Under the pieces are notes generated by a model, which saw only the letters and a program-made list of their open reading frames with translations, was not told where the DNA came from and made no database searches. From Spirochaetes bacterium ADurb.Bin218 (lineage in GTDB: Bacteria > Spirochaetota > UBA4802 > UBA5550), in NCBI GenBank assembly GCA_002069965.1, contig MWCI01000006.1, positions 888 through 64,887 on the forward strand: a DNA stretch of 64,000 nt, read 5' to 3'. Of this stretch, positions 2,892-58,100 are shown piece after piece (the first letter of the stretch is position 1; each line of letters opens with the position of its first letter). The position numbers were made by a program, and so were the translations under genes.

Positions 2892-3932
2892 ATGCTTTCC
2901 AATATATTCAAAGGCAAAGAACCAATTTTTGTTGCAGAGATAGGTCTTAATCACAATGGCAACATTGATGAGGCAATCGCTATGATTAAGGCAGCAGCAG
3001 AATGTGGAGCAGATGCTGTAAAGTTTCAGACCTTTATTCCTGAGCTTATGGTATCACCCTTTGCTTCTTCAATGTTGAATGAAGAAGCTTTTATGAAAAA
3101 AGACTATGACACAATAAATTTTTTTAAAAAATTTACTTTTTCAAAAGAAGAGTGGCTCAGAATACAAGAGGCAGCTAAAAAATATAACGTTGAGTTCTTC
3201 TCTGCAGCATTTGATATCCCCTCTGTGGAACTCCTTGAAGAGTTAAATGTCAGGCTTTATAAAATTGCTTCCTCTGAGGTTACAAATATACCTCTCCTTG
3301 AAAAAATAGGCCACACAAAAAAGCCAGTGATTATGTCCACTGGAATGGCCTGTGAGGAGGAGATATTATCTGCAATTGAAACTCTCTCAAAAAACGGCAC
3401 AGGGGATATAGTTTTGCTTCATTGTGTTTCACTTTATCCACTTGAAGACTCTGAGGCAAACTTAAGAAGAGTCTTATCTTTAAAAGAAAAGTTTAAACTT
3501 CCAGTAGGATTATCAGATCACAGCAGAGATCACTATGCTGCAATGATAGCCTCTGCCTTTGGTGCAGTTGTTATAGAAAAGCATTTTAAACTACATAGTA
3601 AACATCTTTGCCCTGATAGTGAGGTTTCCCTTGAACCAGAAAGCTTTTCAGAGATGATAGCCCTTGCAAGGAGAGGATTTGCTCTTGCTGGCAGCGGAGA
3701 GATTAAGACTCAAGGCCGGGAGTGTAATACTGCCAGAGGTGCCAGGCGAAGCCTTTTTGCTGCAAAAAAAATTCCTGCAGGAAAAGATCTTTCAATGGAT
3801 GATGTCATTGCTCTCCGGCCTGGGACAGGGATACCTGTGCAGGAAATATATAAATACAGGGGTAAAAAAGTTTTGACAGATATTGATGAGGGTTTACCTC
3901 TCAAGGGTGAATATTTTGAACAGGAGCAATAA
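2892..3932 (+). CDS. NeuB-family sialic-acid-type synthase (N-acetylneuraminate / pseudaminate / legionaminate synthase)
   Basis: N-terminal IAEIGLNHNGNIDEAIAMIKAAAECGADAVKFQTF (NeuB TIM barrel) plus a C-terminal SAF/antifreeze-like domain. Confidence 0.8.
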   Translation: MLSNIFKGKEPIFVAEIGLNHNGNIDEAIAMIKAAAECGADAVKFQTFIPELMVSPFASSMLNEEAFMKKDYDTINFFKKFTFSKEEWLRIQEAAKKYNVEFFSAAFDIPSVELLEELNVRLYKIASSEVTNIPLLEKIGHTKKPVIMSTGMACEEEILSAIETLSKNGTGDIVLLHCVSLYPLEDSEANLRRVLSLKEKFKLPVGLSDHSRDHYAAMIASAFGAVVIEKHFKLHSKHLCPDSEVSLEPESFSEMIALARRGFALAGSGEIKTQGRECNTARGARRSLFAAKKIPAGKDLSMDDVIALRPGTGIPVQEIYKYRGKKVLTDIDEGLPLKGEYFEQEQ

Positions 3933-4454
3933 ATGATGCGCAAAAGAAAAGTGATTGCACTGCTTGTGCTTTGCCTGGCTTTGACTCAGTGCACAACATG
4001 GTATAGACTTACAAGAAAAGACAGCAAACTCTGGAATCAAAGTGATATTGCTATTCTTACCTCAGTTGCAGAGGCAATAGAATTTAGAGCTGGTTTTGAT
4101 CCGTATTTAGATTTAGATTATATCTACATGGCGGGTAACTTTACAAAAGAAGAGATAGCAGTAAAAGAAAAAAAGTTGAAAGAGGTTATAACTTCATTTA
4201 AAAGTGAAGATGTAATTGCCTTTTACGAAAAAGTTTTTTCCATTGTTGAAATTTTGAAATGGTATGCCGAAGATTATAAAAATGATGAAGAATGGAATGA
4301 GGCAACTTACATAGAAAAATATCTGTTACCAGATACAGAGAAATTTTCTGAAATGCTTGAAAAAAATATCATCATAATAAATCCTGATTATTCAAAAATT
4401 ATTGAGGAGAGAAAAAGAGTCATCAAAGACAGAGTCAAAAAAGATCTGGATTGA
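3933..4454 (+). CDS. hypothetical lipoprotein
   Basis: Signal peptide with lipobox LALTQC. The start codon overlaps the upstream stop (taaATGATG). Confidence 0.5.
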   Translation: MMRKRKVIALLVLCLALTQCTTWYRLTRKDSKLWNQSDIAILTSVAEAIEFRAGFDPYLDLDYIYMAGNFTKEEIAVKEKKLKEVITSFKSEDVIAFYEKVFSIVEILKWYAEDYKNDEEWNEATYIEKYLLPDTEKFSEMLEKNIIIINPDYSKIIEERKRVIKDRVKKDLD

Positions 4455-4471
4455 TGCTTTGTTAGTTATCT

Positions 4472-5668
4472 ATGAACAGAGTCATAATAAAATTAAGCAT
4501 TATCTTTACAATAGTTCTCACTTCTTTAACCCCACTTTTTTCACAAACAAAGGGGATGTATGTTTTATGCTATCACACCTTTGGGGATAAAAAAGATCCA
4601 TACACTCTGGCTTACTCTACACTTAAGGTTAATTTAGAAAGCCTTAAAAGGGCTGGATATAAATTTGTTAGCTTCGAAGATGTTGTATCAGGAAATATAG
4701 AGGGAACAAAAAACATATTGGTGACCATTGATGATGGAAATAAGAGCGTATATGAAGCTTATTTTTCGATTATGAAGCCTCTTGGCATAAAGCCAGTTCT
4801 TGGAATATATCCTGCGATAATAGGAAGAGTCCATTATGCATTAACATGGGAAGAGCTAAGAAGGCTATCGGCAGAGGGTTGCTATATTGCATCCCATGGG
4901 TATCATCACATGTTTTTGTCTGAAAAGTATTCAAAGGAAGAACCTGAAAGCTTTAAAAAAGAAATATATTATTCTAAAAAAGTTCTGGAAGAAAAACTTG
5001 GCCGCAAGATAGAGGCAATGGTCTATCCCTTTGGAGTTTATAGCAACATTGCAGTTGCGGAGATGAAAAATGCAGGATACAAATATGGACTTTGCCTTAC
5101 ACAGAAAATGGCTTATCTTCCCTTTGAAGATAGCTTTGCAATACCTCGATATATGATCACAAAGCCAAATCAGAAGGGGCTGATGGCTTTTTTTGCAAAG
5201 AAGGCTCAGGAGAGTCATAATGTATCTACTTTAGAAGATTCAAAAAAAGAAAATAGCCCTAAAGCAGCAAAAAAAAATGTTGATATTGTCTCTCTTCAAA
5301 ACTATCCCCAAAGAATAAGCAAGATGGTGGCAAATGATATTATATTTATGCCAGATAATAAACAATCAGAAAAGCCTAAGAACAAGAAACATATAACAAA
5401 GTCCAGAAGCAACTTTAAGCCCTATATTCATAGTGCAGCAGACTTAAAGAGAATTAAAAAAGAAAGCAAAAAGGATGTTACTCCTTCAAAAAAAATCTCT
5501 GACCAAGAATTAAACAGAAAAACTACAAGACATACATTTTTTAGAGAGCTTAAAGAAAAACTATTTGATATTGAGAAAGAACTTACAGCTTATATCCATT
5601 CTTTTATTGATCTTGCAGCGACAAAAACCGCTTTTGTAAGAGACAGAATTGTCTCTTTCTTTTCTTGA
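4472..5668 (+). CDS. polysaccharide deacetylase (NodB-homology) family protein with Lys-rich C-terminal tail
   Basis: Signal peptide and NodB-domain motifs (TIDDGNKSVYEAYFSIMKPLGIKPVLGIYP, ASHGYHHMFL). The C-terminal 150 aa are highly basic. Confidence 0.65.
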   Translation: MNRVIIKLSIIFTIVLTSLTPLFSQTKGMYVLCYHTFGDKKDPYTLAYSTLKVNLESLKRAGYKFVSFEDVVSGNIEGTKNILVTIDDGNKSVYEAYFSIMKPLGIKPVLGIYPAIIGRVHYALTWEELRRLSAEGCYIASHGYHHMFLSEKYSKEEPESFKKEIYYSKKVLEEKLGRKIEAMVYPFGVYSNIAVAEMKNAGYKYGLCLTQKMAYLPFEDSFAIPRYMITKPNQKGLMAFFAKKAQESHNVSTLEDSKKENSPKAAKKNVDIVSLQNYPQRISKMVANDIIFMPDNKQSEKPKNKKHITKSRSNFKPYIHSAADLKRIKKESKKDVTPSKKISDQELNRKTTRHTFFRELKEKLFDIEKELTAYIHSFIDLAATKTAFVRDRIVSFFS

Positions 5669-5716
5669 TGTCTTTTAATTTTGCAGTAAAAGATAGTGCT
5701 AATTTCAAATAAAATT

Positions 5717-5828
5717 CAGTAATAATTCCTGAACTTCTTTTAAAATAAAAATACTCTATTATCTCCGCCGACTTTGACGGGAATGATATTTTCTTGATTT
5801 TACACTAAATATTTAGGAATAATTACTG
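5717..5828 (+). repeat. MITE-like dispersed element, copy A
   Basis: Left end CAGTAATAATTCCTGAAC and right end TTAGGAATAATTACTG form terminal inverted repeats. The shared core is ...CTTCTTTTAAAATAAAAATACTCT...TTTACACTAAA(A/T)ATTTAGGAATAATTACTG. Confidence 0.6.
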
Positions 5829-47745: not shown

Positions 47746-48882
47746 ATGATCTTGTCTGAGTTTTTGTATTTATTCCTTATGTTTTTTGTTCCAATGTTTT
47801 TGATTATAATTGCATTGGGGCAACTTGCAGAGAGAGATAAGGACTTTGTCCATTATGTCTTTGCTTTTTCTTTTATTGGTCAGGGATTATGGGAGATTCA
47901 AATAATCATATATAGCACAAAGGCTTTTCCTGATCTTTATGGCTTTGCAGTATGGCTTATCCCTTTTTCTTATGTGGTGACCCCTTTGCTTTTTATAAGG
48001 TATGTCTGGATTTTTTCTGTAGAGTATAGATTTTACAGAAGGCATATATTTTTATTTATACCATCAGTTATGGCTTTGTTTTTTTGCCTCTTTGTGATTT
48101 TTGTTTCTGGTGAATTTTCTCTTAATCACTTTGAGGCTCTACCTTTTTTGAGTAAAAGCTTTTATTCTCTTCCTCTTATCTCCAGATTGTTTCTGATAAA
48201 TATTCTCTTAAGCAAGATCTATCTTTTTGGGCTTATGCTATTTATGCTTTATAAGTTTTATAAGATATCAAGGTATAGCACCACTGTCAGGCTTTCAAGA
48301 GTTTTTAATGTAGGTTACATCTTTGCTATACTTATAGCTACTATGACAGCTATTTGTATTTTTGGAGATTTATTTTCAATGTCTGTGGTGAGAGGTTCAG
48401 TCCTTGTTGCAAATGTTTTTATATGTGCAGTTTATGTTGTCTCCAGAAGACATCCGAGCTACAACAGGATGCTTAAGATAGAGATAGAAAAGGTAAGCTA
48501 TGTTAATTCCTACATTAAAGGACTTGATTCAGATAGAGTAATAGCAAATCTCTATTCCCTTATGAGGGAAGAGAAGGCCTTTGCAGATGAGGATATTTCT
48601 TTGAAAAAACTGGCAGATGAGCTTGATATTACCACTCATCAGTTATCGCAAATTTTAAATGAAAAGATAAAAAAGAATTTTAATACCTTTATAAACGAGT
48701 TTAGGGTAGAATAAGCAAAATCTCTCCTTGTGGAGGAAGCTGATAGATCTATACTTTCAATAAGTCTTGCTGTTGGTTTTAATTCCTATACAACCTTTTG
48801 TACCACCTTTTCAAAATATACAGGCGAGTCTCCAAGTAATTATAGAAAGAGATTTTTAAAGGGCCATCTGCCAAAGAAATGA
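47746..48882 (+). pseudogene. membrane-anchored AraC-family regulator interrupted by in-frame TAA at 48712..48714
   Basis: Seven or more TM helices, then the first helix of an AraC HTH (LKKLADELDITTHQLSQILNEKIKKNFNTFINEFRVE). A TAA follows. The same frame then continues with the second HTH half AKSLLVEEADRSILSISLAVGFNSYTTFCTTFSKYTGESPSNYRKRF. Confidence 0.55.
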
Positions 48883-48911: not shown

Positions 48912-50270
48912 TTAGTCCTGTCGATTTGTTCTTGTCCAGATATTCATCTTTTCAGCCTCTGCTATTAATTCCTCTCTAAAGTCGGGGTGAGCAATGCCTA
49001 TGAGTGCTTCGGCCCTTTCCCATGTAGATTTTCCTTTAAGCTGAACTATTCCATATTCTGTGACAATATAATGGACCATGTTTCTTGTGACAGTTACAAC
49101 TGTTCCAGGTTTGAATGTCGGCACTATCCGTGATTTCAGGTTTCCATTTTTGTCTGTGTAGGTTGATTCAAGGCATATAAAAGATTTTCCACCTTCTGAA
49201 TGAAACGCCCCGTATACAAAATCCCATTGCCCACCTGTTCCGGTAATATGCCTGAATCCATTGGACTCTGAAGAAACCTGGCTGTAAAGATCCACCTCAA
49301 GGCAATTATTTATTGAAACAACATCTGGATTTGCAGCAATAATCTTAGGATCATTGACCATATTCACAGGATATGATGCAAGGAATGGGTTGTTGTCCAT
49401 AAAATCATAAAGCCTCTGGGAGCCAAAGGCAAAGGTGTATACCATTTTTCCAGGATAAACTTTTTTCTTGTTGTTGCTTATACATCCCTGTTCAAACATG
49501 TCTATATAGGAATCAACTAACATCTCTGTGTGAACGCCAAGATCTTTAAGTCCAGACGAAGCAATTAGCTTGCCAAGGGCATTGGGCATTCCTCCAATTC
49601 CAAGCTGGATGCAGCTTCCATCTTTCATCTCATTGATTAGCATTGAGGCAATTTTTTTCTCTGTTTCTGATGGAGTCTCTTCTGGAGCAGTAAGAAGTGG
49701 GGCATGATCTGATTCAACAATGTAATCAACCTCAGAGATGTGAACTGATTCATCAAGGCCACCAAGGCAGTATGGTATGTTTTTGTTAACCTCAACTACT
49801 ACTGTTTTTGCATGTTTTATTATAGTTTTTACAAAGGTGTTTGCAATTCCAAAATTAAAGAAGCCATTTTTGTCCATGGCAGTTGCGCGCATAAATAAAA
49901 TATCTGTTCCTGCATAGCCGCATTCTACTGTGCGTGGATATTCGTGAAATAGTGATGGCAGATAGTCGCACAGCCCTTTGTCGTGAAGAATTCTGTCTCC
50001 AATGCTAAAGTGCGCATTGGTAAAGATAATATGCTCTCTTTTTTGATCTGCCCATACAGCTTGACAGATACCAGGATACACTTGAGTCTGGAGTTTTACA
50101 TTATGCAGCTCATGAACTCTTTGAGCCAGAAATTTATCTATATAAACAGGTGATAGTATAAAGCCGGCATAGCATATTCTGCTATTTGATTGAACAAGCC
50201 TTGCAGCTTCTTCTCCAGAGATGAGCTTGCTGCGGTATTCACTTTCATACTGGGGGGTTATGATATTCAT
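48912..50270 (-). CDS. acetyl-CoA hydrolase/transferase family protein (paralog of 16584..17930)
   Basis: 452 aa, colinear similarity with the other copy (…VVVEVNKNIPYCLGG…VTEYGI..LKGKSTWERAEALI…AHPDFRE). Confidence 0.8.
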   Translation of the reverse strand: MNIITPQYESEYRSKLISGEEAARLVQSNSRICYAGFILSPVYIDKFLAQRVHELHNVKLQTQVYPGICQAVWADQKREHIIFTNAHFSIGDRILHDKGLCDYLPSLFHEYPRTVECGYAGTDILFMRATAMDKNGFFNFGIANTFVKTIIKHAKTVVVEVNKNIPYCLGGLDESVHISEVDYIVESDHAPLLTAPEETPSETEKKIASMLINEMKDGSCIQLGIGGMPNALGKLIASSGLKDLGVHTEMLVDSYIDMFEQGCISNNKKKVYPGKMVYTFAFGSQRLYDFMDNNPFLASYPVNMVNDPKIIAANPDVVSINNCLEVDLYSQVSSESNGFRHITGTGGQWDFVYGAFHSEGGKSFICLESTYTDKNGNLKSRIVPTFKPGTVVTVTRNMVHYIVTEYGIVQLKGKSTWERAEALIGIAHPDFREELIAEAEKMNIWTRTNRQD

Positions 50271-50446
50271 AGATTTTCTCCTTGAGATTGAGATCTTATC
50301 ATTTTACAAAAAGACTTAGCTAAAGTAATAAGCTTTCTGTAAAAGGATTAAACAGGATGATTATAGTATAGAGAATTGAGGTTGTCTTGCGGATTTATAA
50401 AAGCAAAGGTTTGCATATATTCAGGATTATAAAAATGAAAGTGAGG

Positions 50447-51595
50447 CTATTTTCTTTTCATGGCAACTAAAATAATATCCTCATCAAGCTCTGCATAATC
50501 AGTAAAATCATATACAGACTCAATAATTGAGTGGACTATTTCAAGGGAGTCGAGATTTGCATTTTCTTTAAATTTGCCTTTGAGTCTCTCTAAGCCAAAT
50601 TCTGTATTTGTGTTTTCTTTTTTTGCTCTTAATATTCCTGGTGTATAATAAAGAAGAATGTCTCCTTCCTCCATACTTATGGTGAGATCTCTGAAGAAGG
50701 ATCTATTGGTAAAGAGTTTTCCAGTTTCTGTTTCTGACAGGTTTATTACTCCATTTTTATTGTTGATATAAAGAAGGGAATGAATTTTCCCAAAAGAAGA
50801 AATAGATACCTTGGCTGTTTTAAGATTGATCTGATATATTGATAGATAAATATCAGCTATATTTCCAGGTATAGAGTTTTTTAGTTTGTTGTTGATTTTA
50901 TCAATGATTACAGAAGGAACATTTTTTATTAGCTCATCACTTCTAAGCATAGTCTTGATCATTCCACCAATAAAGGAAGAGGAATGGCCTTCATTAGCTA
51001 TATAGCAGGTTGCTACAGTGTAGGTGTTTTTGTCATTAAAAAAACCATCAATAAAGGCACCACTCATAAACTTTGCAGGGAGATATGCACTTCTTATATC
51101 CATTTCTTTTACATCATCAAATTTTGGGAAAAGCCTTGCTTGAATATCGCGCATATTGAGCAGTTCTTTTTTAGATTCACTTCGTTGAAAGACTTCTCTG
51201 TTTGCATATACTGAGAGATCAGAAAGAGTCTTTGCAATAAAACTCAACAACCTTTTGCTAATATCTGTTATTGCCTTTTCTCCTTGTGTGACAACTGCCC
51301 ATTGGGCATAGTTTTCTACTTTAGAGATAGATACAAAACAGTTTATCTTTTTTGAGTATTTAGAAGTGAGTTCCAGAGAAAATTCTTCCCCTCCTTTGAG
51401 TTTTTCTGTAAAATCTGGAATTTTGATAAGAGTCTCATAAGACATATAAGGGAAGTCTTCGGATAAGGATTTTTTTGCAAGGGAATGGCCAGAGTCACCC
51501 TCTACATAAACCATTTCTATAAATTTAATATCTATAATATCTGCAATATCTGCAATTTGCCTGATTAATATTTCAGCGATTTCATTATTAGTCAT
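50447..51595 (-). CDS. PP2C-type (SpoIIE/RsbU-family) serine phosphatase with unknown N-terminal domain
   Basis: C-terminal PP2C motifs YLPAKFMSGAFIDGFF...ATCYIANEGHSSSFIGGM and the final DEDIILVAMKRK. The N-terminal roughly 150 aa have no recognisable domain. Confidence 0.7.
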   Translation of the reverse strand: MTNNEIAEILIRQIADIADIIDIKFIEMVYVEGDSGHSLAKKSLSEDFPYMSYETLIKIPDFTEKLKGGEEFSLELTSKYSKKINCFVSISKVENYAQWAVVTQGEKAITDISKRLLSFIAKTLSDLSVYANREVFQRSESKKELLNMRDIQARLFPKFDDVKEMDIRSAYLPAKFMSGAFIDGFFNDKNTYTVATCYIANEGHSSSFIGGMIKTMLRSDELIKNVPSVIIDKINNKLKNSIPGNIADIYLSIYQINLKTAKVSISSFGKIHSLLYINNKNGVINLSETETGKLFTNRSFFRDLTISMEEGDILLYYTPGILRAKKENTNTEFGLERLKGKFKENANLDSLEIVHSIIESVYDFTDYAELDEDIILVAMKRK

Positions 51596-51754
51596 AGCTA
51601 TAAAAATATTTTTATATTTTATTTAAAAGTAACATCAAAAGCCCTATATAGTCAAATTTTTTTTAAAAAGCTTTAAAAAGAATTTTTATTGACTCTTTTT
51701 TGTTTAAGGCTTAAGCTTCTGAAAGAATTATGGAATTTGCTGCGGCGAGGTTTT

Positions 51755-54700
51755 ATGTATCTTGGTTCTGATAAATATGGTGAAATAAAATATGTTGATG
51801 ATGTAAGCAGGCTTCTCACAGAGCTTTGTGGTGAAAGAGATATAGCTGTAATAAAGGAAAAGTTAGTTGATATAGTGCTGTTTATTCGCTATGAGCTTAA
51901 GACCAGAGGAAGTCTCAAGGGTATAAAAACAGAGTCTCTTGGAGAGCTTGAAACTCATGTAATAAAATTTCTTGCATCATATAATGGCCATGATTTTGAA
52001 GAGCTATATCACCTTATATATGAGCTTATAAAGCAAATCCCCAAGTTTAATATCTATGGCATAGACATAACAGAGCTGAGAGATATTGCACACGATTTTG
52101 AGGCTGAATATAGATATGATCCAGTCTTTGGATCAATTGCAGCAGACATAAGAAAGCTCACTCATCAGCACCTTTCAGATAAGGTTATTTCAAAGATTGA
52201 AAAATTTGAGCAATTTCTCCTTTCAGATAAGACAAGTGCAATGATTGATGGTAGCACTGTTTATAATGTATCCAAAGAGGCAAAGGAGGATCTGCTTGAG
52301 TCAGAAATCTTTCAGGAGCTTCTGGAGCTTAAGAATAAGCTTAAGATCGCATGGTCAGACAGAGGCGACACAAAAAATGGAATGAGCAGAGAGGAATTTT
52401 TTAAGGTAATAGATTCAAATTTGTCAGGTCTTATAACTGATGAGGTGAAGACTCTTAAAAATTATGAACATTTTTTGCATCATCTCCAGAGAGCAAAGGA
52501 GGTTCTCAAGGATAAAGAATGGGAAGATGCAGCAATAGGCAGAATTCGTTATAATCTCAAAAAATTGATTGAGGAAATTACTTTAACAGAAACTAAAAAC
52601 AAGGGTGAACTTCTTTTTAGATTGATTACAACAGACTCTCTCCTTGAACAGATAGCCTTCATTTATTACTCAAATCTTGTTAACACAAAGTATAAGATTA
52701 TTACTGATAACACATACATTGATGCACTGCATCTTCTTGTGGATTTAACCTTTTGTGTCAGAGCTGTTGGCCATGGAACAAAAATTTTAGGTCGCTTTGC
52801 TTTGCTTATAGAGAGAATACTTCTGCAACTTGATTCCCGTCCTGATAGAATAGCTCATTTCCCCAGCATTGTAGAGGCAATGAACTCTGAGCTTGAGAAT
52901 AATTTTCTTGCTATTAAGGAACTTTATTATAGCTATCTCTCTGATAGAGATAATGCACCTGCGCTGACTGCTATACTGAACAATATTATAAGGGAAAAGA
53001 CAACTCATGTTTTGGGTATACTCATAAACAGTATAAAAAACTATGATGTGCGAAAATCTGCAGAGCCCTATCAACAGATACTTGATGAGCTTAAAAATAG
53101 AGGCAAACTTACAATAAAAGATTTTGTTTACAGCTTTGGCACAGATATAGATGAGTCAATTGGAAAACTGGAGAAGATCGAATTCATGGGAGGCAAGGGC
53201 TTTTCCCAGATAAGAAATTCTCGTATTTTGCGTTCAATTAAATTGCCAAACTTTGATGTTCCAAAGGGTTATGGCTTTAGCACTTTGACCTGGTATCACA
53301 TGCAAAAGGGATTTTTCACTGTTGATGATATAAGGAACGAAATTTTCCGGATGATAAAAAATTTAGAGAAACGAACAGGTAAAAAATACGGTGATAGCGA
53401 CAATCCTCTTTTGCTTATGGCAAGATCTGGCAGTGTTGTTTCAATGCCAGGTATACTGGATACAGTTAGCCATATAGGCATAAATAAGGAAATTGCAGAT
53501 AGGTGGTCAAAAAATTTAAAAGAACCAGCAAGAGCTTATCAGGCCTATATATCCTTTATGCTAAGTTATGCAAAGAGCGTCCTTGGGCTTGACACAGAAG
53601 CTCTGGTGAAGGAAACTGGCTTTGATAGTTATGTCTCTGTTTTTAGAGAAGGACTTTTTATTATGAAGGATGCTGCAGATGCAATATTTCAGGCTATACA
53701 GGAGAAGGGCTGTGGAGCCTTTATTCCTGATGATCCTTATGAACAGATTTATAAATCAGCAATAGCAGTGTTTAGATCCTTTGAGAGTGATGTTGTAAAA
53801 AAGCAGACAATACATCTTGGTATACCAGAGCAGTTTCAAACAGGCTGTCTTATACAGGAGTGCGTTCCAGTTCTTTCAGCAAATGATTGCTCTGGTGTAT
53901 TTTTTACACGCAATCCAAACACAGGAAGAATTGGCAGCAAATATGATGAGCAGATTGAATTCAGCGATGGATTTTTTGGAAATGTCATAGCAGATGGAGC
54001 CATAACCCCTGGTAATACAGAAGATTTCATCAGACTTCATCCAGAGCACTATGAGGGATTTAGAAAGTTTAAATATGTAGATGAGAGAATACAGAGATTC
54101 CCAACGGATATTGAATTTGCCATAAGAGGAGGGGTTGCATATATAGTTCAGTCCAGAGTTTTAAAGCAATCGCCCATTGCTCGTATTATAAATAGCTATG
54201 AGTTTTATAAAGAGAATATCTACACAAAGTATAAGCTCATAAAGAGAACAGCCTTTGGACTTAATAAGAAGATAATCGGAACCTATCTTGATCGCAAAGC
54301 CTTAAGCGATGCACCTGTTATTGCTCAGGGTAAACCTGTAAATGGAGGAGCTGTGAGAGGAAGGCTTATAAAAGATCAAAATAGCATAAGTCTTTTTGAT
54401 GGGAAACTTATATTTATAACAGAGAGCAATGTTCCGCCCAAGGTAATTATGGCAGAAAACAGATTCTATGGCTATATATCAAAGGAGGGAGGGGTAACCT
54501 CTCATGCAGCACTTGTTGCCATAGGAGAGGGCAAGCCCTGTGTAACTGATGTTCATTGGGAGCAGAATAAAGAGCCAGGTCATGAGGATGAAATAATTAT
54601 AGGTTCAACTGTTTTAAGAGAAGGCGATTATATCACCTTAGATGCAAATACTGGAATGATTTACAAAGAGGATATTCCAATACTTGAGGTGTCTGTAGTT

Positions 54701-54778
54701 GATAGTGAGTATAAAGAGATTAAAGATGCAATCCTCTCTGTAATAGAGGAACTGGTTGCACCTGTAGAACAATATTGA
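51755..54778 (+). CDS. pyruvate-phosphate-dikinase-like protein: novel N-terminal domain + PPDK_N ATP-grasp nucleotide-binding domain + PEP-utilizer phosphohistidine swivel domain; no PEP/pyruvate TIM barrel
   Basis: FMGGKGFSQIR...VPKGYGFST, then SGSVVSMPGILDTVSHIGIN, then FFTRNPNTGRIGSKYDEQIEFSDGFFGNVIADG (PPDK_N), then ISKEGGVTSHAALVAIGEGKPCVTDV (mobile His domain). The protein ends about 90 aa later. In-frame ATG at 51755 with GAGG upstream. Confidence 0.7.
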   Translation: MYLGSDKYGEIKYVDDVSRLLTELCGERDIAVIKEKLVDIVLFIRYELKTRGSLKGIKTESLGELETHVIKFLASYNGHDFEELYHLIYELIKQIPKFNIYGIDITELRDIAHDFEAEYRYDPVFGSIAADIRKLTHQHLSDKVISKIEKFEQFLLSDKTSAMIDGSTVYNVSKEAKEDLLESEIFQELLELKNKLKIAWSDRGDTKNGMSREEFFKVIDSNLSGLITDEVKTLKNYEHFLHHLQRAKEVLKDKEWEDAAIGRIRYNLKKLIEEITLTETKNKGELLFRLITTDSLLEQIAFIYYSNLVNTKYKIITDNTYIDALHLLVDLTFCVRAVGHGTKILGRFALLIERILLQLDSRPDRIAHFPSIVEAMNSELENNFLAIKELYYSYLSDRDNAPALTAILNNIIREKTTHVLGILINSIKNYDVRKSAEPYQQILDELKNRGKLTIKDFVYSFGTDIDESIGKLEKIEFMGGKGFSQIRNSRILRSIKLPNFDVPKGYGFSTLTWYHMQKGFFTVDDIRNEIFRMIKNLEKRTGKKYGDSDNPLLLMARSGSVVSMPGILDTVSHIGINKEIADRWSKNLKEPARAYQAYISFMLSYAKSVLGLDTEALVKETGFDSYVSVFREGLFIMKDAADAIFQAIQEKGCGAFIPDDPYEQIYKSAIAVFRSFESDVVKKQTIHLGIPEQFQTGCLIQECVPVLSANDCSGVFFTRNPNTGRIGSKYDEQIEFSDGFFGNVIADGAITPGNTEDFIRLHPEHYEGFRKFKYVDERIQRFPTDIEFAIRGGVAYIVQSRVLKQSPIARIINSYEFYKENIYTKYKLIKRTAFGLNKKIIGTYLDRKALSDAPVIAQGKPVNGGAVRGRLIKDQNSISLFDGKLIFITESNVPPKVIMAENRFYGYISKEGGVTSHAALVAIGEGKPCVTDVHWEQNKEPGHEDEIIIGSTVLREGDYITLDANTGMIYKEDIPILEVSVVDSEYKEIKDAILSVIEELVAPVEQY

Positions 54779-54906
54779 AGTCAGTTAATAATAAAATTCT
54801 TTACAAAAATTTTGTTTGATTTTATTTTTAACTTACTTTAAAAATAAGCTCTTCAAGGCTATTATCAGAGACTTCATCATTTTGAAAACGCAAAACAGGG
54901 AAAATC

Positions 54907-55584
54907 ATGAATGTTATTTATATATCAAAAATTGCTGTTACTATTTTCTTTGGACTTATTCTTGGCTTTTTGTCATCAATACCTGTTGGGGCAGTTCAGC
55001 TTGAGGTAATAAAGAAGACAATCAATGGCCATACGAAGCCAGCAATAGCTACAGCCCTTGGCTCTGCTACATCGGATTTGCTTTATGGCTTGCTCACTCT
55101 TTTTGGATTTGGACACTTTCTTTTGCACAAGGATTTTCAAATCTTTATTTATCTTATGGGCATAGTAGTTCTCCTTTATCTGATTTATAAGTCTTACCAG
55201 GAGAGGGAGTATATGCTCCATAAAGAAAAGAGGATAAAGTATAACAAGAGACTCTCTTTTTTGACTGGATTTACAATTGCAGTGACAAACCCGGGCATGA
55301 TAATATGGTGGTTTATAGGATTCAGGCTTTATGCAGATCTCAATTTGTTTGATGTAATTACACCTGTTATTAAGCTTTGTTTTGTTATATCAGGTGCCAT
55401 TGGTCTTGCTTTATATCTCATACTTGAGGCAGCCATATTGCATAGGCTAAAGAGATCCTTTTCTGAGAAGTTTCTCTATAGGGCAAATGTCTTTCTTATG
55501 ATTGTTCTTGGGGTTTTGGTTTTATATTTTGCTTACAAACTTGTGCTTATTATTTTTAATCTAAAAAATATGCCTTCTTTTTAA
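54907..55584 (+). CDS. LysE/RhtB-family amino-acid exporter
   Basis: Six-TM 225-aa protein with LysE-type N-terminal motif (FLSSIPVGAVQLEVIKKT...ALGSATSDLLY). Confidence 0.7.
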   Translation: MNVIYISKIAVTIFFGLILGFLSSIPVGAVQLEVIKKTINGHTKPAIATALGSATSDLLYGLLTLFGFGHFLLHKDFQIFIYLMGIVVLLYLIYKSYQEREYMLHKEKRIKYNKRLSFLTGFTIAVTNPGMIIWWFIGFRLYADLNLFDVITPVIKLCFVISGAIGLALYLILEAAILHRLKRSFSEKFLYRANVFLMIVLGVLVLYFAYKLVLIIFNLKNMPSF

Positions 55585-55637
55585 GTTACCTGTAGTAGAC
55601 TTTTCAACTGCCCTTAGATTGTAAAGGGCATAGAGAT

Positions 55638-56189
55638 TTATCCAATAAGATAGGTCCCAGTCCCTGTTGCAATTAAGTTGTCGCTATCATTGAACATGTC
55701 CATACGTGTAACTGCAATCTTGTTGCCTGCACGTATTACATAAGAAATACATCTAAATTTTTTGCCGCTGCCAGGACGCAGATAGTCAACTCTTATGTTG
55801 AGTGTGCTCATTTTGCTAAAGCGAGAAATCAGCTCTGCAATGCTAACTCCTTTCATTGAGTGGATTGCATGTGTTTGAGCAATAATTCCTCCTGCAAGAT
55901 CTATTACAGCAGAGATCACGCCGCCATGGAGAATTTTTTGAACATAATTGCCATAGAGCTCTTCTCTTGAGTCAATTTCTATGATTGCCTTTTCCAGGGA
56001 AAGTTCCTTTACCTTTATTCCAAGGTAAACGTTAAAGGGCATCTTGGAATTATAGACTTCTTTAAGAGTTTCTATTATAACTTTAATTGCCTCTGGTTTT
56101 GTGAAGTCTGGAATGCTTTTAAGAAAATCTTCAGGAAGAGAAGCGCTATTTAATATTTCTGCTGTAGAGATGTTCTTTTTTTTATCCAT
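55638..56189 (-). CDS. hotdog-fold thioesterase (PaaI/4HBT-like)
   Basis: LHGGVISAVIDLAGG motif typical of PaaI-type thioesterases. Confidence 0.65.
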   Translation of the reverse strand: MDKKKNISTAEILNSASLPEDFLKSIPDFTKPEAIKVIIETLKEVYNSKMPFNVYLGIKVKELSLEKAIIEIDSREELYGNYVQKILHGGVISAVIDLAGGIIAQTHAIHSMKGVSIAELISRFSKMSTLNIRVDYLRPGSGKKFRCISYVIRAGNKIAVTRMDMFNDSDNLIATGTGTYLIG

Positions 56190-56723: not shown

Positions 56724-58100
56724 ATGAAGATTCTTGTTTTAAATGGAAGCCCAAAGGGTGATTCAAGTGTAACAATGCAGTATGTGAAATTTATTCAGAA
56801 AAAAATTCCTTCCCATGACTTTGATTTTATAAATGTTGCACAAAATATTGTAAGTATTGAGAAGGATGAAAAATTTTTCAATGAAATAATCGAAAAGGTT
56901 AAGGAAAGTAATATTATATTATGGGCAACTCCTCTGTATGTCTGTCTTGTTCCATCTCAATATAAGAGATTTATAGAGCTTATATGGGAAAGAGGTGCAG
57001 ATGGCGCTTTTTCTGGTAAGTATGGCGCTGTCATTACTACATCCATTCATTTTTTTGACAACAGTGCTCATAATTACATGAGAGCTATTTGTGAAGATTT
57101 AAATATGAATTTTGCTGGTTCTTTTTCTCCTGATATGTATGACATTATGAATAAAGATGGCAGGGATAAGCTTATAGCCTTTGGCAAAAAAATTTTTTAC
57201 ATTGCACAGAACAATATGGTAACCTCAAAGGCCTTTGCAAAGCCTGTGTATGAGATAAAAAGCTACAGTTTCACTTTACCTGTAAAAAAGAAGGATTTTG
57301 GCAATAAAAAGGTGCTTGTTCTTACAGATAGAGAATATAAAGGAGATAATCTCTCCGCCATGATTGATAGATTTATTAGCAATGTTGATGGCTCTGTAGA
57401 GCTCATCTCTTTGTCTGATATTGATATTAAGGGTGGATGCCTTGGATGTTGCCAGTGCGGATTTGATTATAGGTGTGTATATACAGGCAAGGATGAGTTC
57501 ATTGATTTTTATAATAATAAGTTGCGCAGTGCTGATATTATAATCTTTGCAGGTGAGATAAAAGATCGCTATCTCTCTGCTAAATGGAAGCAGATGTTTG
57601 ATAGGGCCTTTTTCAATACTCATACTCCAACTCTTGGGGGAAAGCAATTTGGAATTTTACTCTCTGGTCCTTTTTCATTTATGGCAAACCTCAGAGAAAT
57701 TTTACTTGCCTATTTTCAGTGGCAGGGAGCAAATCTTATTGATATAGTATCTGATGAATATGACTCAGAGACTATAGACAGGCTTATTGATAATCTTGCA
57801 CAGAATTTACTGTGGAGTGCAGGTGAGGGCTATGTAGAGCCTCCTACATTTTTGGGAGTTGGTGGTCGCAAGATCTTCCGTGATGATATATGGGGAAGAT
57901 TGAGATTTGTTTTTCAGGCAGATCATAAATATTATGAAGAAAATGGATTTTACGATTTTCCTCAGGATGATCAAAAAACCATTGAGATAAATAAAAAGAT
58001 GATTGAACTTACAAGCAATCCTGAGATGAGAGAAAATGTCAGAAAGATGATAAAAACAGAGATGGTAAAACCAATGAAGCATATAGTTGAAACAAAGTAG
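56724..58100 (+). CDS. tandem flavodoxin-like protein: NAD(P)H-dependent FMN reductase-like domain fused to iron-sulfur flavoprotein (Isf)-like domain
   Basis: First half MKILVLNGSPKGDSS (FMN_red-like). The second half carries CLGCCQCGFDYRC, matching the Isf CX2CX2CX5C cluster motif. Confidence 0.7.
   Translation: MKILVLNGSPKGDSSVTMQYVKFIQKKIPSHDFDFINVAQNIVSIEKDEKFFNEIIEKVKESNIILWATPLYVCLVPSQYKRFIELIWERGADGAFSGKYGAVITTSIHFFDNSAHNYMRAICEDLNMNFAGSFSPDMYDIMNKDGRDKLIAFGKKIFYIAQNNMVTSKAFAKPVYEIKSYSFTLPVKKKDFGNKKVLVLTDREYKGDNLSAMIDRFISNVDGSVELISLSDIDIKGGCLGCCQCGFDYRCVYTGKDEFIDFYNNKLRSADIIIFAGEIKDRYLSAKWKQMFDRAFFNTHTPTLGGKQFGILLSGPFSFMANLREILLAYFQWQGANLIDIVSDEYDSETIDRLIDNLAQNLLWSAGEGYVEPPTFLGVGGRKIFRDDIWGRLRFVFQADHKYYEENGFYDFPQDDQKTIEINKKMIELTSNPEMRENVRKMIKTEMVKPMKHIVETK

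Follow-up and report, generated by a model that had tools for sequence, protein, structure and literature searches.

Phosphoenolpyruvate (PEP)-utilizing dikinases are a textbook example of domain swivelling. To our knowledge, the characterized members deliver their phosphoryl group to a TIM barrel (pyruvate phosphate dikinase (PPDK), PEP synthase and Enzyme I), to a substrate domain of the rifampin phosphotransferase (RPH) type (RPH itself, HpeHI and phenylphosphate synthase) or to no further domain at all (VadK). Here we describe a dikinase gene that departs from each of these arrangements, found in a window of 64,000 nucleotides from Spirochaetes bacterium ADurb.Bin218 (GenBank assembly GCA_002069965.1, contig MWCI01000006.1, positions 888 to 64,887), which is the whole stretch of DNA that we analysed. 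Its 1007-aa product joins a PPDK-type ATP-grasp and phosphohistidine core to an N-terminal domain of about 470 residues, and we assign it to a rare, uncharacterized, PPDK-derived superfamily that is defined by this structurally orphan domain.

The closest described systems share parts of this design. PPDK (TIGR01828; 1KBL/1DIK) has the same ATP-grasp and His domains, and its known ATP- and phosphate-site residues and GG(V/M)TSHAA loop are kept in the window dikinase, but the latter lacks the TIM barrel, carries an unrelated 470-aa helical N-terminal domain and scores 222 rather than 843 bits against the PPDK model. VadK and the window dikinase both keep the ATP-binding and phosphohistidine domains of PPDK; VadK is an actinobacterial protein of ~490 aa with no extra domain, whereas the family described here adds the 470-aa N-terminal domain and occurs in uncultured Leptospirales and Desulfobacterota-type metagenome-assembled genomes (MAGs). 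After VadK, it provides a further, independent case of a lineage whose PPDK has lost its barrel.

RPH and the two-component small-molecule dikinases HpeHI, MarK and phenylphosphate synthase follow the logic that we propose for the window dikinase, combining an ATP-grasp domain, a C-terminally tethered His domain and a separate substrate domain, other than a TIM barrel, to which the phosphoryl group passes, and in HpeHI and RPH the swivelling histidine serves to phosphorylate small molecules (PMC12167813). The substrate domain of RPH, however, has a different fold and sits between the ATP-grasp and His domains, whereas the putative substrate domain of the window dikinase is at the N-terminus, and the core of the window protein is PPDK-like rather than PEP-synthase- or RPH-like. 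The prodigiosin ligases PigC, RedH and HapC also combine a PPDK_N-type domain with PEP-utilizers, have no TIM barrel and act on non-pyruvate substrates, but their domain order and substrate-binding region are unlike those of the window dikinase; their NCBIfam models gave weak cross-matches in distant relatives and no match for the window dikinase itself. Judged from its sequence, the dikinase would work like the RPH/HpeHI class or like VadK and yet falls outside those families, and outside PPDK and PEP synthase, because it misses the cut-offs of the three models that it matches, has no RPH match, lacks the TIM barrel and carries an extra domain.

A PPDK-type catalytic core without a PEP/pyruvate barrel

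The C-terminal half of the dikinase aligns over ~490 residues with residues 30-519 of Clostridium symbiosum PPDK (1KBL, E 1e-47) and also matches the isolated PPDK His domain 2FM4. Residue numbers here refer to the 1007-aa dikinase unless the 1029-aa open reading frame (ORF), which begins at an upstream TTG, is named. In Pfam searches the 1029-aa ORF matched PPDK_N at residues 547-776 and PEP-utilizers (PF00391, 36.8 bits) at residues 919-989. The PPDK model TIGR01828 aligns residues 478-1011 of this ORF with profile positions 2-519 of 865 (222 bits, E 1.2e-65), a match that covers the nucleotide-binding and phosphohistidine domains and ends where the PEP/pyruvate TIM barrel would start. As the alignment stops at position 519, we conclude that the barrel is absent; Pfam likewise gave no match to the barrel family PF02896, and the protein ends at residue 1007, 90 residues past the catalytic histidine. 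Pfam, TIGR01828 and the structure alignment to PPDK thus bear out the original prediction of a PPDK-like ATP-grasp and swivel domain without a TIM barrel, and the motifs on which that prediction was based (GGKGFSQ, SMPGILDTV, FTRNPNTG and GGVTSHAALVA) are all found in the translation.

An alignment of 19 homologues, reaching down to 50% identity, shows no substitution at K481, R557, D785, E787, Q799, R801, T915 or H917. We take the set from K481 to R801 to be the counterparts of PPDK K22, R92, D321, E323, Q335 and R337, in that order, and T915 and H917 to be those of the catalytic-loop residues T453 and H455. Because these PPDK catalytic residues are invariant, the machinery for ATP-dependent phosphorylation of His917 looks intact.

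Measured against PPDK, the window protein has the Lys/Arg/Asp/Glu/Gln/Arg set of the ATP-grasp domain and the GGxTSH swivel motif, but it has no TIM barrel and its TIGR01828 score lies below the equivalog cut-off of 843.45. For the PEP synthase models, the scores were 35.7 bits (TIGR01418, cut-off 598) and 18.7 bits (NF005057, cut-off 740), so that neither a family-level score nor the barrel of a PEP synthase is present, and the NCBIfam models for RPH gave no match at E≤0.01, which places the protein outside NF041857 as well. The second-best NCBIfam match, at 158.2 bits, was NF004531/PRK05878, which we take to be a truncated-PPDK model covering VadK (Rv1127c); with a cut-off of 456, this score means that the dikinase is not a member of that family.

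An orphan N-terminal domain defines a rare superfamily

Residues ~1-470 of the dikinase have no Pfam or NCBIfam match, and when the N-terminal domains of 20 family members were compared with Pfam at E≤1, no family was matched by three or more. Among PDB sequences, a profile built from the domain found nothing at E≤10. AlphaFold2, given a 20-sequence alignment, modelled the domain as all-helical save for one short hairpin (mean predicted local distance difference test (pLDDT) 79.5; predicted template-modelling score (pTM) 0.75), and a fold comparison of this model matched no relative. The searches and the model together uphold the earlier description of an all-helical N-terminus of ~470 residues without a recognizable family. 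They also separate the protein from glucan water dikinase, as no carbohydrate-binding module (CBM45 or CBM20) was matched in residues 1-472 in the comparison of 20 members at E≤1, and the model is helical, not a beta-sandwich. The original prediction had counted glucan water dikinase among the enzymes that place the ATP-grasp domain first; this was mistaken, since the nucleotide-binding domain of that enzyme is at its C-terminus.

The domain is rare. A hidden Markov model of it found only 25 matches in 1.84 billion representative proteins. From the protein database, a word-indexed search with the dikinase retrieved 46 clusters, 980-1030 aa long and 50-86% identical to it, which shows that the gene is not a chance ORF, and the next matches below these clusters were ordinary PPDKs at 28% identity. 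All nine of the long N-domain matches that were scanned against Pfam (995-1413 aa) have PPDK_N behind the N-terminal region, and eight of the nine also have PEP-utilizers; they are 34-38% (P0122, P0125, P0126 and P0128) or 24-27% (P0138, P0139, P0143, P0144 and P0145) identical to the window dikinase. When the N-terminal domain of the window family was compared by hhalign with that of five distant proteins, the two aligned over 394 columns with a probability of 99.5% and an E-value of 3.5e-22. The plan of the superfamily, which the window protein follows, is a homologous helical N-terminal domain of ~470-620 aa, then PPDK_N and PEP-utilizers, without a TIM barrel. Source databases give these proteins generic names, 'phosphohistidine swiveling domain-containing protein' or 'PEP-utilizing enzyme'.

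A scan of one genome per species yielded 35 loci, all of them in MAGs and labelled either Leptospirales/Spirochaetota or delta-proteobacteria/Thermodesulfobacteriota. A homologue search with the distant N-domain alignment A5 added little, as it recovered only 10 close P0139-type proteins, and a metagenome locus scan with alignment A7 recovered only 3 loci.

In 17 sequences drawn from across the superfamily at ~20-25% identity, five residues of the N-terminal domain never vary, namely R109, R133, H137, R413 and G339, the last within an RAxGxG loop, and R265, R336, D294, E298, N310 and S141 are near-invariant in the same sequences. Such an invariant Arg/His/Gly pattern is what one would expect of a site for phosphate or carboxylate, not of a scaffold, and we predict an Arg/His-lined acceptor site in this domain. 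An orphan domain with invariant Arg and His residues that always comes with a PPDK core would add a new type of solution to the PEP-utilizing dikinases, and it points to an unassigned reaction or regulatory circuit.

Gene neighbourhoods differ between branches

To compare gene contexts, ORFs from the window and the 35 loci were predicted and clustered, and the clusters were annotated. The dikinase's best-conserved neighbour is a gene for a LysE-family translocator. Within the ≥66% identity clade it lies downstream on the same strand in 20 of the 21 loci that could be observed, and it is absent from the ≤60% clade. The gap between the two genes ranges from 28 to 426 bp (the shortest are 28-37 bp), and they may be co-transcribed. 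A dikinase-LysE operon, if there is one, may hint at a small exported molecule.

The upstream side is more varied. A divergent gene for a GAF-PP2C protein, as in the window, stands upstream of the dikinase in 8 of the 29 loci with a visible upstream gene, the window included, and all eight belong to the ≥75% identity clade (the other seven are L001, L002, L003, L007, L008, L016 and L017). Six further loci of this clade hold a different upstream gene, for a pseudouridine synthase, a small lipoprotein or orf322, and in L005 the PP2C gene lies 4 kb from the dikinase with two genes between. The original prediction had looked to a pairing of dikinase and PP2C conserved across related genomes; with a PP2C neighbour in only 8 of 29 loci, and missing even within the same clade, that pairing therefore falls away. 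In the 65-72% clade, five loci have an oxaloacetate-decarboxylase-alpha/pyruvate-carboxylase-B-like (OadA-like) gene as the divergent neighbour, and the clades of lower identity have NUDIX, membrane-protein or unique genes upstream.

Signalling genes also appear on the other side of the dikinase. Three loci of the 56-60% clade (L018, L026 and L033) have a CheD-PAS-HWE/HisKA_2 histidine kinase directly downstream of the dikinase instead of LysE, at a gap of down to 34 bp (the kinase gene occupies 11279-13339 in L018), and the next gene after the kinase in L026 and L033 encodes a LuxR-type response regulator. No glycolytic neighbour genes were seen in the window's clade.

The picture changes in the distant branches. 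P0144 (1413 aa; L036 8001-12242, GCA_964477705.1), at 24% identity, has a complete phosphoglycerate kinase (PGK; PF00162, residues 1000-1385) fused after the His domain, where it fills the position that the TIM barrel has in PPDK. In the P0139 branch, five of the six loci with a visible upstream gene have a glycolytic neighbour. One of the five is L037, where a PGK gene fragment is adjacent to a dikinase of this branch. A GAPDH-like-PGK-like fusion is encoded upstream in L041 (890-6238) and in L050 (1478-5053, with one small gene between). In L038 (3829-6603, minus strand) and L042 (670-3543, minus strand), the dikinase relative has as its divergent neighbour a canonical PPDK that is full-length and keeps the TIM barrel, so the paralogues coexist side by side, and a GlcD/GlcF-like FAD/Fe-S oxidase gene lies downstream in L038 and L049. 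In other branches (L039, L040, L044-46, L047 and L051), no glycolytic link was found among the neighbours. An association with lower glycolysis and the pyruvate node therefore recurs, but in relatives that are only ~25% identical to the window dikinase.

Some further features of these distant loci may be recorded here. In the L041 and L050 fusions, the divergent GAPDH-like and PGK-like domains come after an unassigned N-terminal region; the 1782-aa ORF in L041 may run on too far at its 5' end, owing to the high G+C content of the DNA. Homology of the dikinase N-terminal domain to the first ~900 aa of this ORF was considered and rejected (hhalign probability 0.2%). Divergent from P0128, L048 encodes an 823-aa protein (3340-5811, minus strand) with PPDK_N only (residues 279-580) and no match to PEP-utilizers or the TIM barrel. 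P0146 has the same flanks in three independent assemblies (L044, L045 and L046), consisting of a 1351-aa and a 561-aa protein without Pfam matches and a 725-aa AAA_5 ATPase.

Proposed reaction and alternatives

We propose tentatively, at a probability of roughly 45%, that the dikinase is an ATP-driven His-phosphorylating enzyme whose N-terminal domain binds an anionic acceptor, probably a small metabolite of central carbon metabolism. The architecture, the residue conservation, the uniqueness of the N-terminal domain and the gene contexts are as observed above, and from them we infer autophosphorylation, swivelling and the nature of the acceptor. In this scheme, the ATP-grasp domain would bind ATP and His917 would be pyrophosphorylated or phosphorylated, with release of AMP and inorganic phosphate (Pi) or pyrophosphate (PPi), a step suggested by the full conservation of the PPDK catalytic residues. 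The His domain, held on a single linker as in RPH and VadK, would then swing to the N-terminal domain. There, a site made up of R109, R133, H137, the RAxGxG loop with G339, and R413 would take the anionic acceptor, which would gain the phosphoryl group. Judging from the conservation of these residues and from the gene context in the distant branches, a small metabolite of the pyruvate/PEP/3-phosphoglycerate/oxaloacetate node is the likeliest acceptor; in the window's own family, the OadA-like divergent gene of five loci would fit the same node.

Several points weigh against this proposal. The pocket and its acceptor are both putative, and the PPDK_N score of the window dikinase is weak (33.5 bits), which indicates strong divergence. 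The glycolytic associations are confined to the branches at 24-27% identity, and the neighbours in the window's own clade are heterogeneous. The signalling neighbours, GAF-PP2C in one clade and the CheD-PAS-HWE kinase in another, would suit a regulatory role equally well. Finally, VadK, the sole characterized enzyme with just the ATP-grasp and His domains of PPDK, is a regulator and not a kinase of small molecules (PMC13400623).

These last points lead to the alternative that survives best, in which the dikinase is a regulatory His kinase like VadK, phospho-His917 is read via the N-terminal domain as an interaction or sensor module, and no small molecule is phosphorylated. VadK of Mycobacterium tuberculosis (Rv1127c) has been shown by experiment to autophosphorylate its catalytic histidine, His422, in an ATP/Mg2+-dependent manner; it binds PrpC and PrpD and regulates the methylcitrate cycle (PMC13400623). 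The C-terminal half of the window dikinase has the same two-domain make-up, with NF004531 as its second-best NCBIfam match, although at 158 bits against a cut-off of 456, and VadK itself has no N-terminal domain that would correspond to the module proposed here. Adjacent PPDK, PGK and OadA-like genes could be targets of regulation instead of pathway partners, and two clades have signalling neighbours (GAF-PP2C in one, the CheD-PAS-HWE kinase with a LuxR-type regulator in the other); signalling genes are, however, very common in Leptospirales, so both types of adjacency may be due to chance. Arg, His and Gly residues that stay invariant at ~20% identity also point to a catalytic or ligand site more than to a docking surface. 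On balance, we consider a purely regulatory role somewhat unlikely.

The proposal of an enzyme with an anionic acceptor can be taken a step further, to a combined reading in which the N-terminal domain is a third kind of acceptor module, after the TIM barrel and the RPH-type domain, and the superfamily is a new group of central-carbon dikinases. Such enzymes could, for example, couple a C3 acyl or enol phosphate to AMP/PPi-ATP interconversion, with 1,3-bisphosphoglycerate, 3-phosphoglycerate or glycerate as candidates. On this reading, one could account both for the fusion that puts PGK where the TIM barrel would be and for the recurrence of GAPDH-PGK and PPDK genes next to the dikinases of anaerobes, and the Leptospirales branch would be a derived member with a related anionic metabolite as its substrate, perhaps connected with LysE. 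Taken as a whole, this combination is unlikely to hold. The ties of the distant relatives to PGK, GAPDH and PPDK nonetheless raise the question of whether anaerobes have an unrecognized ATP/AMP-PPi-linked step in lower glycolysis.

We judge it very unlikely that the dikinase is a PPDK or PEP synthase, or nearly so, in function, with the N-terminal domain as a non-homologous stand-in for the TIM barrel that still handles pyruvate/PEP or else a close C3 acid, for instance glycerate or 3-phosphoglycerate. The core is indeed nearest to PPDK (222 bits to TIGR01828 in the window protein and 514 in the P0139 branch), far above PEP synthase or RPH; distant members adjoin genes for PPDK, PGK, GAPDH-PGK and the GlcD/GlcF-like FAD/Fe-S oxidase; and the PGK of P0144 occupies the barrel position. 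A canonical PPDK alongside the dikinase relative in L038 and L042 nevertheless argues for a different role, and the window clade lacks glycolytic neighbours. The fold comparison matched no helical pyruvate/PEP-binding fold to the N-terminal domain, and we know of no all-helical fold that binds pyruvate or PEP.

The divergent GAF-PP2C protein

Whereas the architecture of the dikinase N-terminus is new, the protein encoded on the other side of the intergenic region is an ordinary one. Its N-terminus, which had been described as 150 unassigned residues, proved to be a common GAF sensor domain with the GAF fold, and the protein as a whole has the layout of the GAF-PP2C (SpoIIE/RsbU) phosphatases, a GAF domain followed by a SpoIIE-family PP2C domain. 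The SpoIIE/PP2C domain (PF07228) is matched at residues 203-381 with 56.2 bits against a gathering score of 25, and in 26 of 26 family members. With ~60 related database clusters, the gene is not a chance ORF, and the family is limited to the same organism group as the dikinase.

The active site is degenerate. Its residues were mapped by motif alignment to canonical PP2C family members and to RssB, and the best solved relative of the domain is the PP2C domain of Pseudomonas aeruginosa RssB. Across the family, SG(A/T/N) stands in place of GGD and T(P/R/N/K)G in place of TDG. The window protein has SGA and TPG at these motifs and YIANEG in place of D(V)xGxG, where other members have D(V)SxYG; only the last Asp of the DD motif is retained (D373). 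Two of the four canonical motif Asp residues are thus lost family-wide and three of the four in the window protein. RssB of Escherichia coli is a pseudo-phosphatase adaptor with degenerate catalytic motifs, a feature that the window protein shares with RssB, but without its receiver domain.

The GD-motif Asp is a canonical metal ligand of PP2C enzymes. SpoIIE coordinates its metals through D628/G629, D746 and D795 (PMC5468089). Equivalents of SpoIIE D746 and of the GD-motif Asp are missing throughout the family, and the window protein has no equivalent of D628 either, and so lacks most of the metal-binding Asp set of an active PP2C. Given these losses, we read it as a pseudo-phosphatase or sensor-adaptor that is probably catalytically inactive. 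The original prediction of an RsbU/SpoIIE-type PP2C phosphatase is therefore right about the SpoIIE domain and sits poorly with an active site whose aspartates are mostly replaced. Among the annotated neighbours of the GAF-PP2C gene we found no STAS or anti-sigma partner genes.

The protein is probably a lineage-specific neighbour that stands outside the dikinase's function. A dedicated pair in which the dikinase phosphorylates and the PP2C protein dephosphorylates one substrate, as the divergent adjacency in the window and seven related loci might suggest, is extremely unlikely, and we reject a conserved kinase/phosphatase partnership, because the adjacency is absent from 21 of the 29 informative loci (loci of the same ≥75% clade among them, and L005 with its two intervening genes), identity to the window in the nearest loci is only ~50% for the PP2C protein as against 84-85% for the dikinase, the canonical Asp residues of the GGD, TDG and D(V)xGxG motifs are replaced, and PP2C enzymes act on phospho-Ser/Thr and are not known to act on phospho-His or small molecules.

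Locus organization and neighbouring genes

Both divergent ORFs of the original prediction exist where it had placed them, and the parts of the locus are collected in Table 1. The true start of the dikinase is almost certainly the ATG at 51755 rather than the TTG at 51689 from which the mechanical ORF runs: a GAGG sits 5 nt before this ATG, and the resulting 1007-aa protein is 100% identical to a database protein (P0001, 'PEP-utilizing enzyme [Spirochaetota bacterium]'). With this start, the divergent intergenic region measures 159 bp, in place of the shared region of 95 bp proposed earlier (93 bp when counted from the TTG). A search of positions 50200-55700 against Rfam found no family at E≤1, including any riboswitch or leader in the intergenic region.

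Table 1. Features of the dikinase locus, in coordinates of the window
Feature	Position	Strand	Basis or remark
Dikinase coding sequence, 1007 aa	51755..54778	+	ORF, Shine-Dalgarno, database identity
Mechanical dikinase ORF from TTG 51689, 1029 aa	51689..54778	+	
N-terminal all-helical domain, aa 1-472 (family signature)	51755..53170	+	
PPDK-type nucleotide-binding (ATP-grasp) domain and linker, ~aa 478-848	53186..54298	+	PPDK_N, TIGR01828, C. symbiosum PPDK alignment
Swivelling phosphohistidine domain, ~aa 849-974, motif GGVTSHAALVA	54299..54676	+	PEP-utilizers, 2fm4 match
His917 codon (putative catalytic residue)	54503-54505	+	Translation
AT-rich divergent intergenic region, 159 bp	51596..51754	.	
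GAF-PP2C (SpoIIE-family) protein, 382 aa	50447..51595	-	
GAF domain of the PP2C gene, ~aa 1-140	51176-51595	-	PP2C domain follows at ~aa 146-382
LysE-family translocator, 128 bp 3' of the dikinase	54907..55584	+	LysE, 66.6 bits

The window has a G+C content of 36%. The genes around the pair are housekeeping genes, for argininosuccinate lyase, a GT4 glycosyltransferase, a PLD-type enzyme and an FMN reductase. A role in defence was also considered and rejected, as PADLOC had no match for either protein and the surroundings are of this housekeeping kind.

Two other proteins of the window deserve mention. A 322-aa multi-pass membrane protein (47746-48714, plus strand) has no Pfam match and is kept in the loci of the closest relatives (cluster c18); by eye, its last ~40 residues look like the beginning of a helix-turn-helix of the AraC type. 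Beyond the LysE gene, a 458-aa protein (56724-58100, plus strand) has an NADPH-dependent FMN reductase/flavodoxin-like domain that is confined to its first ~130 residues, and the other ~320 residues, which are without assignment, include the Cys-rich stretch CLGCCQCGFDYRC.

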